A DNA stretch of 64,000 bases from Candidatus Moraniibacteriota bacterium (lineage in GTDB: Bacteria > Patescibacteriota > Minisyncoccia > Moranbacterales > UBA1568), in assembly GCA_963743885.1 (NCBI GenBank), contig CAVURJ010000002.1, positions 305,706 to 369,705 of the forward strand, given 5' to 3'. Positions 7,033-39,723 of the stretch are shown here, in pieces (position 1 is the stretch's first letter; each line of letters opens with the position of its first letter). Position numbers and translations under genes: made by a program. A model generated the notes under the pieces. It was not told where the DNA came from, made no database searches, and saw only the letters and a program-made list of their open reading frames with translations.

Positions 7033-8142
7033 ATGGAAACGATGCAGATAGCCCAGATCCAGAGCATCCCGCTCGTCATGAATGTCCTCAAGGTTTTCGC
7101 GACCGGATTTTTGGCATTTTTGCTCGCCTTCGTCCTGACGCCTTTGTGGACGCACATCCTTTTCAAGTATAAGTTTGGCATCAAGATCAAGAAGAACGAT
7201 GTCAATGGAGAGAAGCTGACATTCGTGAGCAAGCTCCATGCTGGCAAAGCAGGGACACCGACGATGGGTGGTGTGATCGTCTGGGTCTCAGTGTTTATTC
7301 TCGTGCTCGTATCGCATTACGCTTTCCCGTACATCGCGGAGTGGACGGATACCAACTTCATCGCTCGTCTCGATTTCTTCAAGCGTTCACAGGTCTGGCT
7401 GCCGCTTTTCGTCTTGGTGACGGCTGGCATCCTGGGCCTTTTTGACGACTATATGAGTGTCCGCGGTTGCGGTACCAATAAGGGCGGCGGCATGCGCTTC
7501 GCCTTTCGTTTCTGGTGGCTGTTCATCATTGCTGGTGCGGGCGCCTGGTGGTTCTATGACAAGCTTGGTTGGGACCAGATCCATGTGCCAGCAATCGGAG
7601 ATTTCACTATCGGTTGGTGGTATATCCCGCTTTTCATCTTCGTGATTCTCTTTGCGGCTATCTCCTCCAACGAGACGGACGGTTTGGACGGCTTAAATGG
7701 CGGCGTGCTGCTCATGGCGTTCTCGGCTTTCTCACTCATCGCCTTCATGCACAACAAGATGGATCTGGCGGCCTTCTGCGCCGCGATCGCGGGCGCGCTC
7801 CTGGCATTCCTCTGGTTCAATATCTATCCGGCGCGCTTCTTCATGGGAGATACGGGAGCGATATCGCTTGGTACGACGCTCGGCGTCGTCGCGATGCTCA
7901 CTGATTCCGCACTCGTGCTTTTCGTTGTTGTTTTCATCTATGTGCTCGAATCAAGTTCTGTAGCGATACAGCTTACGAGCAAGCGTTTCTTCGGGAAGAA
8001 GGTATTCCTTGCCGCTCCGCTCCATCATCATTTCGAGGCCAAGGGTTGGCCCGAGCCGAAGGTGGTCATGCGCGCCTGGGTCTTCTCGGCGATCACGGCT
8101 CTTCTTGGCGTGATGATCGGGATATTGGGGATGGGGAAGTAA
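7033..8142 (+). CDS. mraY: phospho-N-acetylmuramoyl-pentapeptide transferase
   Basis: multi-TM protein with DDYMSVRG, NETDGLDGLNGG and FMGDTGAISLG motifs; upstream in-frame extension from 6925 looks non-coding. Confidence 0.9.
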   Translation: METMQIAQIQSIPLVMNVLKVFATGFLAFLLAFVLTPLWTHILFKYKFGIKIKKNDVNGEKLTFVSKLHAGKAGTPTMGGVIVWVSVFILVLVSHYAFPYIAEWTDTNFIARLDFFKRSQVWLPLFVLVTAGILGLFDDYMSVRGCGTNKGGGMRFAFRFWWLFIIAGAGAWWFYDKLGWDQIHVPAIGDFTIGWWYIPLFIFVILFAAISSNETDGLDGLNGGVLLMAFSAFSLIAFMHNKMDLAAFCAAIAGALLAFLWFNIYPARFFMGDTGAISLGTTLGVVAMLTDSALVLFVVVFIYVLESSSVAIQLTSKRFFGKKVFLAAPLHHHFEAKGWPEPKVVMRAWVFSAITALLGVMIGILGMGK

Positions 8143-8149
8143 GGAATTG

Positions 8150-8230
8150 CAGATTTTTGATTGTAGATTGTAGATTGGATCCGAAAAAATCTGAAATCAT
8201 AAATCTGCAATCTGCAATTAATCGCGTTTA
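8150..8230. repeat. AT-rich palindromic intergenic element, family member 2 (ttgcagatt...aatctgcaa)
   Basis: inverted repeat ttgcagatt/aatctgcaa and gatttatgattt word shared with 3078-3117 and 9436-9475. Confidence 0.4.
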
Positions 8231-9334: not shown

Positions 9335-9478
9335 TCTAAAAGCACCAAATCCAAAATTGCAATTTCCAAATAAATTACAATACTCAAAATCCAAATATGA
9401 CTCATATCGTTCCTGGTTTTGAAATTAGAATTTGTGATTTATTTGGAGCTTGTAATTTTGAATTTTAAGTTTTTTTGT
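9335..9478. repeat. AT-rich palindromic intergenic element, family member 3
   Basis: left half aaatccaaaattgcaatttccaaataaattacaat is approximate reverse complement of right half gaatttgtgatttatttggagcttgtaattttgaatttt. Confidence 0.4.
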
Positions 9479-37082: not shown

Positions 37083-37086
37083 TAGT

Positions 37087-37372
37087 CCCGCACTATCTTT
37101 TTTCGGATATGTATTATGTGTATGTAATACAGAATGAGAAGGACGAGCTTTATTATGGCTTTACTTCCGATTTAAAAAAACGGATGCGAGAACATAATGA
37201 AGGAAGCACGTTTTCTACAAGAGGATTTTTGTGGCGTCTTGTCTATTACGAAGCGTATCTTTCGAAGAAAGATGCTATGACGAGAGAACGTAGCATGAAG
37301 CGATATGGCCAAGCGCTCGGGCATCTGAAGAATAGGATAAAGGCTTCATTAAAAGAAAAAAGATAGTGCGGG
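37087..37372. repeat. 17-bp perfect inverted repeat (cccgcactatctttttt / aaaaaagatagtgcggg) whose 252-nt loop is exactly a GIY-YIG ORF; looks like a terminator hairpin invaded by the gene
   Basis: left arm 37087-37103, right arm 37356-37372 (overlaps the ORF stop codon). Confidence 0.6.
37109..37366 (+). CDS. stand-alone GIY-YIG nuclease domain protein (85 aa)
   Basis: YYVYVIQNEKDELYYGFTSDLKKRMREHN matches GIY-(10)-YIG-T-DL-R-H core. Confidence 0.75.
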   Translation: MYYVYVIQNEKDELYYGFTSDLKKRMREHNEGSTFSTRGFLWRLVYYEAYLSKKDAMTRERSMKRYGQALGHLKNRIKASLKEKR

Positions 37373-37449
37373 ATTGCAAGAATAGCATTTTTGTGCTATA
37401 ATTAGTTGTTTGCAGTACCTTTTCATGACAGATCGGATCATCGCGCGAT

Positions 37450-37581
37450 CCCTCACATGAAATGACATGGCCAGTCCGCTGGCTCTTTAGGGACGATGTG
37501 TAAGTAAAAAAGCTATTACTTCGCACAAAACGTTCTCTTGGATGCAAACAAACAAGTTTGTTGTGTCATTTCATGTGAGGG
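37450..37581 (+). repeat. R1: ~130-nt element bounded by perfect 18-bp inverted repeats ccctcacatgaaatgaca / tgtcatttcatgtgaggg, inside RNase P RNA at the P2/P3 position
   Basis: direct repeat of 38007-38140. Confidence 0.6.
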
Positions 37582-38006
37582 AAGTGAGGAAAGTCCGGAC
37601 ACTCAGCCGCCGAAAGGCGGCACGGGTAGCAGGTAACGCCTGTCAGCCGATGCATGGCATCGGAAGTTCCAAGAGACAAGTTCCAAGAAACAAGGAATAT
37701 CCAATATTCAATGACCAATGATCAAGGCGGAGCAGTATTCCGAAATTGTGATTTGAGAGTTGGAGATTGTATCTTATTTGTATCTTGTAGCTTGAGGCTT
37801 GGTGATTCCGCTGCCATGCAGCGGCAGAGGTGCGAACAGTGACGCCGAAGCCGAAAGGCCGAGGATCCCTTCGGGGATAATTCCGTTGGAAGGCGGAAGT
37901 GAAACGGCTAAATCCTTACTTGGGTGCAAGGCCGCGTCTCGGCGTAAGCCGAGAAGAGCCGCAAAGATCTTCCTGGCGACAGGAAGGCAAGAGAAATGAT
38001 GGTCAT

Positions 38007-38140
38007 CCCTCACATGAAATGACATAGCCAGTCCGCTGGCTTCTTGAGGACCATTGTGTAAGCAGGCAGAATCAGCCATGTGCATGATGCGTTCTCTCGG
38101 ATGCAAACAAACAAGTTTGTTGTGTCATTTCATGTGAGGG
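38007..38140 (+). repeat. R2: second copy of the 18-bp-IR-bounded element, immediately 5' of the P4 3' strand
   Basis: 44-nt and 20-nt identical blocks with R1; central ~30 nt diverged. Confidence 0.6.
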
Positions 38141-38227
38141 AGACAGAATCCGGCTTATAGATCTGTCATGAAAAGGTATTAGAATAACAGGGTATAGGGG
38201 AAAGGGCTTAGGGTATAGTCAAAAAAT

Positions 38228-38285
38228 CTAAACCCTACTATCTATATCCTGTCCTCTAAACCCTATCCCCTAAACCCTAACCCCT
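38228..38285. repeat. short telomere-like CTAAACCCT/CCCTAA repeats with inverted TTAGGG-like partner upstream (38190-38225)
   Basis: tctaaaccctac...ctctaaaccctatcccctaaaccctaacccctg. Confidence 0.35.
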
Positions 38286-38292
38286 GTTTACA

Positions 38293-39723
38293 ATGAAGCG
38301 TTCCGAAATATTCTTCAGCGCTATTCAGGTGCCAGTCGATCTCATTGTGATTGTGCTGGCGGCTATTTCTGCGTATTACCTGCGCAGCTGGGAACCTGTC
38401 CGGCCGTTCTTGTCGCCGGTCTTCAATCTTTCTTTCGAGGATTATTTCCGTTTTGCGGCGACGGTCTCGCCGTTTTTCCTGCTCGTCTACGCGATCGAGG
38501 GGCTGTATACCATGCGTGTCACCCGCAGCTTCTGGCGCGAGGTATCGAGCATCTTCCGGGCGACGTCGCTCGGTCTCATTATCCTTATCATCGCGGTCTT
38601 TCTCAAGCGCGAATGGTTTTCTTCGCGTTTCGTCATTCTGGCAGGGTGGGGGTTGGCTGTGGCCTACGTCGTCTTCGCGCGCTATCTCATCCAGCGGGCC
38701 CAGAAGTGGTTCCTGGTGAATCGTGGTATTGGCGTCCATCGTGTCTTGCTCATCGGCTACAACGACAAGATGCGGCTGCTCCGCATGCGCCTCGACCATG
38801 ACAAGACGCTCGGCTACCGTGTGGTCGACCAAATTTCCGACGCCAGTCTGACGCACATCAAGGAGATCCGTCAGATGAAGGGTGTCGATGAGATCGTTGT
38901 GGGCGATCCGTCGCTTACCGATGATGAGCAGGAGAAGCTTTTCGATTTCTGCCAGATCAACAATGTCGCTTACAAATACTATCCGACGACGCTCCAGACG
39001 CAGCGTTTCTCTATGCGCATGTTCCAGGGCGAGCCGATCATCGAGTTCGAGCATACGCCGCTTGATGGCTGGGGCAAGGTGCTCAAGCGTGCCTATGACA
39101 TCGTCGCCGGCTTCGTCCTGACGGTGCTTTTTTCCCCGATCATGCTCGTCATCGCCATCCTCATCAAGCTTGAGGATCCGGATGGTCCGATCATCTACAA
39201 GAACGAGCGTATCGGCGAGAACGGCAAGAAATTCTTCGTCTACAAGTTCCGCTATATGCAGTGGAAGTATTGTGTCACCAAGGACAATCCGAAGATGAAA
39301 GAAGCAATCGCCTTCGAGAAAGAGCTCATCGCGAAGCACAATACCCGTGAAGGTGGTATCCTCTACAAGATCAAGGATGATCCGCGCAAGATGCGGGTCG
39401 GTGCGTTCATCGAGCGTTTCTCACTCGACGAGTTCCCGCAGTTCTTCAATGTCCTGAAGGGGGATATGAGCCTCGTGGGGCCGCGGCCGCACCAGGAGCG
39501 CGAAGTGGAGCTCTACAAAGAGTACCATCGCCGCCTCCTCACCATCAAGCCGGGCGTGACCGGTATGGCGCAGGTCTCCGGCCGCTCCGACCTCGCCTTC
39601 GAGGATGAGTACCGTCTCGACGTTTTCTACATCGAGAACTGGTCGCTTTGGCTTGATATCATCATCTGTTTCAAGACCGCCGGTGCGCTCCTCCGCCGCC
39701 GGAAGAATGGCCATGGGAAGTAG
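38293..39723 (+). CDS. polyprenyl-phosphate hexose-1-phosphate transferase (WbaP/EPS initiating sugar transferase family)
   Basis: N-terminal 4-5 TM, C-terminal 'bacterial sugar transferase' block KFRYMQ...DEFPQFFNVLKGDMSLVGPRP. Confidence 0.85.
   Translation: MKRSEIFFSAIQVPVDLIVIVLAAISAYYLRSWEPVRPFLSPVFNLSFEDYFRFAATVSPFFLLVYAIEGLYTMRVTRSFWREVSSIFRATSLGLIILIIAVFLKREWFSSRFVILAGWGLAVAYVVFARYLIQRAQKWFLVNRGIGVHRVLLIGYNDKMRLLRMRLDHDKTLGYRVVDQISDASLTHIKEIRQMKGVDEIVVGDPSLTDDEQEKLFDFCQINNVAYKYYPTTLQTQRFSMRMFQGEPIIEFEHTPLDGWGKVLKRAYDIVAGFVLTVLFSPIMLVIAILIKLEDPDGPIIYKNERIGENGKKFFVYKFRYMQWKYCVTKDNPKMKEAIAFEKELIAKHNTREGGILYKIKDDPRKMRVGAFIERFSLDEFPQFFNVLKGDMSLVGPRPHQEREVELYKEYHRRLLTIKPGVTGMAQVSGRSDLAFEDEYRLDVFYIENWSLWLDIIICFKTAGALLRRRKNGHGK

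Follow-up and report, generated by a model that had tools for sequence, protein, structure and literature searches.

Within a 64,000-nt stretch of DNA from a Candidatus Moraniibacteriota bacterium (contig CAVURJ010000002.1 of assembly GCA_963743885.1, positions 305,706 to 369,705; hereafter the window), the gene for RNase P RNA (rnpB) carries two copies of a palindromic element, which we call R. How does an essential gene come to hold such repeats, and do they belong to the architecture of the RNA or are they insertions? The original prediction for this locus allowed either lineage-specific architecture or insertion. That alternative proved too restrictive: R is an architecture confined to certain lineages and at the same time an insertion-like module that lineages gain and lose. 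The reading we consider probable is that the two copies are helix-tip expansion modules restricted to rnpB, which fold on their own, multiply by copying inside the locus, and pass between lineages, all on a standard RNase P core.

An oversized rnpB with two copies of one module

The gene occupies 37415-38180 on the forward strand, as do all features described below. At 766 nt (about 765 in the original prediction) it is indeed oversized. It is type-A-like with P5.1-like and P19 hairpins, and its identification draws on fragmentary matches to the Rfam family RF00010, on syntenic homologues, and on common anchor motifs. Subtracting the two copies of R (R1 and R2) and an AT-rich hairpin on P9 leaves 313 nt, in agreement with the claim that these three segments account for the excess. 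An Rfam search over the whole 64-kb window returned no family at the gathering level and none at E ≤ 0.001, rnpB included. In a 1-kb search RF00010 matched fragments only, at 22.8 bits (E = 5e-5) and 17.4 bits, with a gathering threshold of 100 bits. The covariance search proposed along with the original prediction thus left the window gene below threshold, and it was the compact syntenic homologues that aligned over their full length, at 78-96 bits. L021 scored 96.3 bits (E = 2.6e-28), L009 81.1 bits (E = 5e-25), and L025 78.5 bits, with E values between 1e-22 and 1e-28 and all three scores below the gathering threshold. The RF00010 score drops with growing insert load, to 44.8, 30.6, and 29.4 bits in insert-rich relatives and to its lowest in the window; we ascribe the sub-threshold score of the window gene to inserts that defeat the Rfam model.

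Our comparison set consisted of eleven relatives: L024, L003, L004, L006, L010, L001, L009, L021, L025, L022 (5' half), and L026. By its PheT homologues the source organism belongs to Candidatus Moranbacteria, within the candidate phyla radiation (CPR). The gene order pheS, pheT, RNA gene, sugar transferase gene is common to the window and its relatives, and in the relatives the gap between pheT and the sugar transferase gene contains the same promoter and all the core motifs of the window. Because the compact syntenic homologues with this promoter and these motifs fit RF00010 end to end, the window gene is assigned to rnpB. As far as its sequence tells, 37415-38180 is an RNase P RNA gene with an ordinary catalytic core. 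The conserved cores named in the original prediction could be read directly, both strands of P4 as well as the motifs GGTAACGCCTG and GTGAAACGG. The 5' strand of P4, GAGGAAAGTCCGGAC, lies at 37586-37600 and fits the RF00010 consensus in the homologues; the 3' strand, ACAGAATCCGGCTTATA, lies at 38143-38159 and fits it too. As expected of a member of RF00010, the universally conserved P4 strands GAGGAAAGUCCGG and ACAGAAnCCGGCUUA follow each other in the correct order inside P1 and P2. P1 pairs 37416-37434 with 38160-38178, and all 19 of the 19 positions are complementary. The pairing itself had been recognized, but the 20 bp given for it are reached only by counting one G-U pair. P1 covaries among relatives. 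P2 pairs GATCATC (37436-37442) with GATGGTC (37998-38004) over 7 bp. It is present in seven of the seven full-length genes, and a homologous P2 is placed in the Rfam alignment of L009. In L001, P2 reads GGCTATC/GATAGCC, with three pairs changed on both sides relative to the window, and this gene also has R at P3 and P19.

R1 (134 nt) spans 37449-37582 and R2 (136 nt) spans 38006-38141; both elements had been recognized and only their boundaries needed correction. Likewise, the inverted repeats bounding each element are perfect as claimed but are 19 nt long, not 18. The repeat, TCCCTCACATGAAATGACA, is present in four copies, two per strand, at 37449, 37564, 38006, and 38123, where 0.02 matches are expected from shuffled sequence and none of 100 shuffles reached four. 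With three mismatches allowed, TCCCTCACATGAAATGACA was not found elsewhere in the 64-kb window, so that the search for further copies suggested with the original prediction yielded these four, all in rnpB. In R1 a 20-bp stem (37449-37468 with 37563-37582) encloses hairpin a (37470-37483), the variable hairpin b (37484-37542), and hairpin c (37544-37561), and R2 has the same architecture. The two copies have in common a block of 52 nt with one mismatch and a block of 50 nt at 88% identity; their centres differ. Folded alone, R1 reaches -65.4 kcal/mol (z = -8.6 against shuffled controls) and R2 -73.9 kcal/mol (z = -8.5), each as the 20-bp stem topped by three hairpins, which bears out the earlier claim that each element can fold on itself. 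Hairpin b is unlike in sequence between R1 and R2 and paired in both. The consensus structure of R holds across five copies, with some compensatory pairs. R contains no open reading frame (ORF). Models of introns and self-cleaving ribozymes gave no family match across 37300-38300 even at E ≤ 10; R as a group I or group II intron is ruled out by this lack of a model match and also by its 134 nt, which is below the size of a group I or II core.

The helices that carry the modules were located from the distances among nine conserved anchor motifs per gene together with an Infernal alignment of L009 to RF00010. From P1 to P4 the window measures 158 nt versus 36-42 nt in relatives without a module there. 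From P8 to P10/11 it measures 195 nt versus 26 nt in compact relatives, and from J18/2 to the 3' strand of P4 154 nt versus 32-48 nt in relatives without a module. In the L009 alignment these three intervals are P3, P9, and the insertion zone between the 3' strands of P2 and P4. Relatives without the module have in that zone a hairpin of 16-32 nt, which is P19, an optional helix already known to vary in length and to stack on P2 (PMC12974513; PMC2858038). Inverted repeats, folding, and anchor distances together place R1 where the inner stem-loop of P3 would be and R2 at the P19 position, between the 3' strands of P2 and P4. Read in this way, R1 is an extended P3 and R2 an extended P19, the two being predicted paralogous copies of one module family.

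A promoter is predicted at 37374-37402 (TTGCAA, 17 nt, TATAAT, with an extended -10 TG; the hexamers match at 10 of 12 positions), and the promoter block TTTTGTGCTATAAT upstream of rnpB is kept in every relative read. Between P5 and P7, in a P5.1-like position, direct reading finds a short hairpin GCCGCC-GAAA-GGCGGC (37606-37621); this site carries extensions of 40-100 nt in L006, L009, L001, and L021. The P12-P13-P14 region, read manually against the anchors, is compact and covers 37847-37898. P15-P17 forms one hairpin with a GUAA loop at 37930-37962, and its tip holds inserts of 120-140 nt in L003 and L004. P18 (37968-37987), with 8 bp and a GCGA loop, shows compensatory changes relative to L024. 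Manual alignment thus recovers the type A specificity-domain helices (P8, P9, P10/11, P12, P13, and P14) and a GNRA-looped P18. The L15 GGU motif that binds the tRNA 3' CCA was not seen on direct reading of the P15-P17 internal loop. [quoted passage not shown] Downstream of the gene, the 3' trailer forms a hairpin at 38189-38282 from low-complexity GGGTATAGGG/CCCTAAACCC repeats with a 14-nt periodicity (-36.5 kcal/mol, z = -3.8), which may be a terminator or serve as a stem for processing, and L004 has a trailer like it. In some relatives an additional structured 5' leader separates the promoter from P1 (L003 6432-6488, L004 6435-6491, and L009 2545-2640). The leader stem of L003 and L004, ACCCTGTGAAAT...ATTTCACAGGGT, is faintly like the R stem, and the L009 leader has GTCATTCCGAGCGAAGCGAGGAATC-type repeats. 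ARAGORN found no tRNA gene in the 64-kb window.

Modules gained, lost, and probably exchanged among relatives

PheT identity to the window is 93% in L024, 83-84% in L003 and L004, 75% in L006, 68% in L010, and 62-65% in L009, L021, and L025; L001 groups with L010, with a nucleotide pheT identity of 98.2%. The window, L024, and L001 each carry R on both P3 and P19. In L010 one copy sits at P3 and another starts at P14, where the contig ends (5126-5162). No R was found in L003, L004, L006, L009, L021, and L025, at P3 of L022 (5' half), or at P19 of L026, which belongs to the L001 clade and has a short P19 (GCTCCTC-TTCG-GAGGGGC). Several of the genes without R carry other modules. L003 has a short P3, an AT-rich P16/17 insert that resembles its own P9 insert, and a P19 module unrelated to R that recurs in its 3' trailer (7122-7231 and 7270-7428). 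In L004 a module of about 140 nt, also unrelated to R, is present in three copies at P3, P16/17, and P19 (6527-6672, 6940-7094, and 7131-7273), two of them at 96% mutual identity. Short UUCG-capped hairpins make up P3 and P19 of L006, which has inserts at P5.1 and P9. L009, L021, and L025 are compact, and the partial L022 (5' half) is without an insert. Three further loci, L007, L008, and L023, reached from PheT P0012 and P0016, have lost synteny and no rnpB was found in them. Judged by these alignments, R is neither universal nor unique to the window genome, and multi-copy helix-tip modules of rnpB recur throughout the clade. R1 and R2 are not conserved helices in all relatives, so the original prediction stands on this point.

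In the Logan data, contigs are cut at R boundaries: the L010 contig stops within a copy of R, and position 1 of L026 falls at an R edge. Several other relatives (P0124, P0125, P0127, and P0137) are represented solely by contigs of 1.6-1.8 kb with the sugar transferase gene alone. Internal repeats of rnpB seem to fragment short-read assemblies, adding to under-detection of the gene. L001 (CAYVHS010000006.1), a GTDB representative titled 'uncultured Bdellovibrionales bacterium', contains a Moranbacteria block of pheT, rnpB, and sugar transferase gene that matches L010 at 97% identity across 2.9 kb. Its label or its binning is probably wrong, and ten consecutive N bases interrupt its rnpB.

Between the window and L024, 133 of the 134 positions of R1 agree, and so do 135 of the 136 of R2 (99.3%), while four-fold degenerate sites are only 69% identical in pheT and 71% in the sugar transferase gene. 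The identity of R includes the central hairpin, and the first mismatches are found 3-4 nt outside the modules. Other helices of the two genes have diverged with compensatory changes (P1 strands identical at 16/19 and 14/19, P16/17 at 19/25), and the P9 extension and P12-14 region are wholly replaced. R1 and R2 keep position-specific variants in both genomes. Across clades, only the R stem and hairpin c are nearly invariant, and the copies do not group by position, with the window P3 copy sharing 64% identity with the P19 copy of L001 and 54% with that at P3 of L010. This order of similarity speaks against an orthology of R copies position by position from clade to clade. The P3 copies of L010 and L001 differ by one 16-nt deletion, which removes hairpin a, and one substitution. 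In these comparisons R is dispensable across the clade and yet stands out, between the two most closely related genomes, as a stretch of identity with sharp boundaries. The near-identity to L024 would reflect either selection on the whole module in that lineage or its transfer as a unit.

No single relative provides the closest match to all parts of the window gene. R1 and R2 are closest to L024 (99%), the P9 extension (37644-37826) to L006 (6669-6869; 91%), and the leader with P1 to L010 (80%). For the 3' trailer the closest match is L004 (75%). P12-14 (37847-37898) is closest to the distant L025 (2230-2300; 92%) and 43-68% identical in closer relatives; this region falls into at least four allele classes, the distribution of which runs against the PheT tree. 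Such a mosaic rnpB points to outer modules being exchanged via recombination across the conserved core, if the alignments are read at face value.

The AT-rich hairpin (37644-37826) illustrates the same pattern with a module other than R. Its arms lie at 37643-37711 and 37760-37828, one of them with 14-nt tandem repeats. The original prediction was right that an AT-rich expansion is present but called it P12-like; the L009 Rfam alignment and anchor distances assign it to P9. Besides the match to L006, the hairpin is 83% identical in L003 and only 44% identical in L024, the nearest genome. Counted over all the hairpin extensions, there are 112 G-U pairs against 46 A-C mismatches, with 6-8 to 0-1 in P9 hairpins and 6 to 1 in the P9 hairpin of the window, a count in which the elements compared are not mutually independent and base composition could bias the result. 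A DNA palindrome under strand-blind maintenance would give G-U and A-C equally. The G-U excess therefore suggests that the sense transcript must fold and that selection acts on the sense-strand RNA. Elsewhere in the window, long AT-rich low-complexity hairpins in the style of the P9 extension and the 3' trailer lie between protein genes at 8145-8219 and 9338-9474, and the genome as a whole may tend to produce hairpins of this sort.

Searches beyond rnpB and competing explanations

An nhmmer profile from five copies of R, run against the window and all fetched loci, matched in rnpB only and found no diverged copies elsewhere. In 185,579 GTDB species-representative genomes the exact 19-mer occurs twice, once in the rnpB of L001 and once in L002. 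Only the match in L001 counts as real because L002 has no partner arm, and when the whole L001 genome was scanned the 19-mer matched in rnpB only. With one position made degenerate, it matched ten times in JGI metagenomes, each time as a lone arm, and we regard these matches as chance because the partner arm is absent, the best candidates having 8-10 mismatches. A 19-mer scan of IMG/VR gave no match. Neither copy has a target-site duplication; the flanks are CGA/AGT at R1 and TCA/GAC at R2, with no direct repeat. Neighbouring ORFs code for PheS and PheT, for a GIY-YIG and a lipase-like protein, and for a sugar transferase; none encodes a transposase or a recombinase. The core has the same orientation in all five genomes counted as having R, the window, L024, L001, and L010 among them.

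These results bear on the suggestion that R is a general mobile palindromic element, which the original prediction had raised and which the lack of copies outside rnpB in the searched sets and of a target-site duplication speaks against. R would then be a genome-wide non-autonomous mobile DNA element, of the type of miniature inverted-repeat transposable elements (MITEs), REPINs, or Rickettsia palindromic elements, that landed twice in rnpB and was tolerated as a hairpin. Its perfect 19-bp terminal inverted repeats, conserved ends, and variable centre are what such an element would have, and so are its presence in some close lineages and not others and its 99.3% identity between genomes differing at 30% of neutral sites. 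A GIY-YIG cassette with its own inverted repeat has moreover been inserted 40 bp upstream. Among the hallmarks of mobile elements, however, R has the terminal inverted repeats (perfect 19-nt arms) and neither the dispersed copies nor the target-site duplication. The window has no copy outside rnpB by either the mismatch-tolerant 19-mer or the nhmmer profile, the sole true match among GTDB species representatives is another rnpB in a genome scanned whole, the ten JGI matches are all lone arms, and IMG/VR has none. No transposase gene is nearby, and the position-specific variants of R1 and R2 are kept in both the window and L024. We consider a mobile element of this kind quite improbable. The same holds to a still greater degree for an invertible DNA segment, in which the core would flip between the right arm of R1 and the left arm of R2, and for mis-assembly of the repeats. 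Inverted 19-mers do flank the core, and the repeats do break the Logan contigs of L010 and L026. But three assemblies made independently from separate samples (the window, L024, and L001) agree in having R at P3 and P19, and in each of them the core is oriented so as to pair with P1 and P4. No recombinase gene is adjacent, and a flip would destroy an essential gene. The invertible segment of the original prediction is thus contradicted by both gene content and orientation, and we give this pair of alternatives hardly any credence.

A long-range fold must be judged about as improbable, whether as the native structure or as a conformational switch. All four arm combinations of R1 and R2 are perfectly complementary, and the original prediction had accordingly proposed that the left arm of R1 pairs with the right arm of R2 in an 18-bp 'super-P2', leaving the right arm of R1 to pair with the left arm of R2. 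The normal, covarying 7-bp P2 directly outside both modules, with its three double-sided changes in L001, refutes this 'super-P2'; relatives pair the same P2 alongside a short P3 and P19. L010 and L026 appear to have R at other combinations of tips, P3 and P14 in the case of L010. Both the minimum free energy and the centroid fold of the whole RNA use the local R hairpins, and with P2 in place, arms paired at long range would make a 19-bp pseudoknot around the entire core. The main rival is of a different kind. R1 and R2 could be transcribed and then cut by RNase III in their 20-bp stems, like the intervening sequences (IVSs) of rRNA, which would leave an RNA in three pieces, joined non-covalently through P1, P2, P4, and what remains of the stems. 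Each module stands in for a hairpin loop and has a perfect 19-20 bp stem at its base, and R is sporadic among relatives with high identity where present. As in an IVS, a long stem-loop stands in place of a hairpin tip. The pattern matches that of the IVSs in helices 25 and 45 of 23S rRNA, where hairpin tips are sporadically replaced (PMC4990558). What the IVS reading does not account for is the interior of R, which is conserved far beyond neutral expectation and the hairpins of which are kept by compensatory change, unexpected for a segment that is discarded. In favour of excision, Brown et al. are said to have reported in 2015 that insertions in CPR rRNA genes are not in the mature rRNA; against it, we know of no naturally fragmented bacterial RNase P RNA that has been described. 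RNase III excision therefore fits the anatomy and the patchiness of R but not its interior conservation, and we regard it as rather unlikely.

We return to helix-tip expansion modules on a standard core. Three outer helix tips, P3, P19, and P9, bear large hairpin modules, with R1 in place of the P3 stem-loop and R2 where relatives have a small hairpin as P19. P3, P2, and P19 lie in a coaxial stack (PMC12974513), and R1 and R2 would lengthen both ends of this rod, pointing away from the active site and leaving P4 and the substrate-binding surfaces untouched. Each module would fold locally during transcription, so that the long-range pairing would not form, and we infer that the modules stay in the mature RNA. 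They would be expansion segments with fast turnover, copied between helix tips, deleted, and swapped by recombination across the core. The copying itself may be a template switch at the DNA level or gene conversion between hairpins. A number of observations weigh against this account. The perfect 20-bp stem of R is a good substrate for RNase III. The central hairpin, which varies freely between R1 and R2, is still near-identical to that of L024, a likeness that selection on structure would hardly produce by itself and that could point to active mobility. The large collections were scanned by 19-mer words only, which diverged copies would escape, and the source genome is represented by 64 kb of a 500-kb contig. 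Helix names come from manual alignment to RF00010 and not from a solved structure, and the states at P14 are less certain, as a run of ten N bases precedes P14 by 25 nt in L001 and the L010 contig stops partway through its P14 copy. Part of the mosaic pattern could come from metagenome assemblies that are chimeric across the conserved core.

It is possible, and we put it forward tentatively, that R is something more specific: a new self-propagating helix-tip module of RNase P, with homing-like or recombination-driven spread between lineages and helices, or a docking platform for a lineage-specific RNase P cofactor. This would jointly explain the presence of the module on two to three helices, its 19-bp stem and hairpin c, invariant even in genomes that diverged deeply, and its 99.3% identity in spite of about 30% neutral difference.

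The GIY-YIG cassette (37086-37373) contains an 85-aa ORF at 37109-37366 (Pfam PF01541, E = 6e-14) and lies between the arms of a perfect 19-bp inverted repeat, TCCCGCACTATCTTTTTTC / GAAAAAAGATAGTGCGGGA. It is absent from the pheT-rnpB spacer of L003, L004, L006, L010, and L024. As the spacers of these relatives lack the whole cassette, it looks like an insertion. The cassette repeat begins TCCCGCAC and that of R begins TCCCTCAC, a likeness that may be due to chance. The protein forms a singleton cluster. A link of R to this adjacent gene is ruled against, since L024, L001, and L010 have R without the gene and the protein is a singleton.

Relation to known systems and significance

RNase P RNAs of the CPR are known to require lowered Rfam thresholds and to have large helix extensions (Lui et al. 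2021, PMC8172020). The CPR class A RNAs described there resemble the window gene in having a P1-P4 pseudoknot core, P8, P9, P10/11, P12-P14, P15, P18, and an optional P19, as well as in sub-threshold Rfam scores, large helix extensions, and no obvious L15 GGU (PMC8172020). That paper does not contain the same module of about 135 nt on two helices, with a third helix in another lineage, nor module families that differ between close relatives or a mosaic gene such as we find in the window clade. In the searchable literature we found no description of a duplicated module on several helices, of families differing between sister lineages, or of a mosaic rnpB, features that are here read from aligned genes.

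Like R, the RNase III-removed IVSs of 23S rRNA helices 25 and 45 are long-stemmed stem-loops of about 100-400 nt at the hairpin tip of an essential RNA. They are also sporadic among relatives, and one genome can carry two helices' worth. R differs from them in its host, RNase P RNA instead of rRNA, and in its highly conserved, structured, ORF-free interior. A precedent in the same gene is that of heterocyst-forming cyanobacteria, in which Vioque (cited in PMC2858038) reportedly described in 1997 STRR repeats in P12 of rnpB, made of heptamers dispersed through the genome. Both there and in the window repeats lie in an outer helix of rnpB and are tolerated as mere lengthening, and the P9 hairpin of the window has tandem repeats of 14 nt. 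The STRR sequences are dispersed heptamers, in contrast to a three-hairpin module found in rnpB only. With MITEs, REPINs, and Rickettsia palindromic elements R has in common a length of about 100-150 nt, perfect terminal inverted repeats, a hairpin structure, and a patchy presence in close lineages. Rickettsia palindromic elements insert into functional genes without destroying them. In these families the dispersed copies number from tens to hundreds in each genome, and many of the families create target-site duplications. R, unlike them, showed neither dispersed copies in the sets searched nor a target-site duplication and appears confined to the helix tips of one gene.

In the accretion model, large RNAs grew by the addition of independently folding segments at helix tips, with the older core undisturbed (PMC12974513). 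An insertion can be retained in a mature RNA, as in the 5S rRNA of Halococcus morrhuae, where 108 nt form a four-way junction (PMC7530397). Unlike these expansion segments, the process in the R clade is recent and recurrent and involves copying of one module within the molecule, and close genomes differ in the modules they contain. The accretion model was inferred from ancient events, and the R clade shows a ribozyme growing over short evolutionary distances, with modules added at P3, P5.1, P9, P14, P16/17, and P19, copied, swapped between lineages, and lost.

One practical consequence is that an essential gene is missed by standard Rfam annotation and that its repeats also break short-read contigs. 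False reports of RNase P RNA missing from CPR genomes would therefore follow. As for its biology, the conservation of R beyond neutral sites in the two closest genomes suggests a new function or a new way of spreading, and either of these, if true, would be new for a bacterial RNase P.

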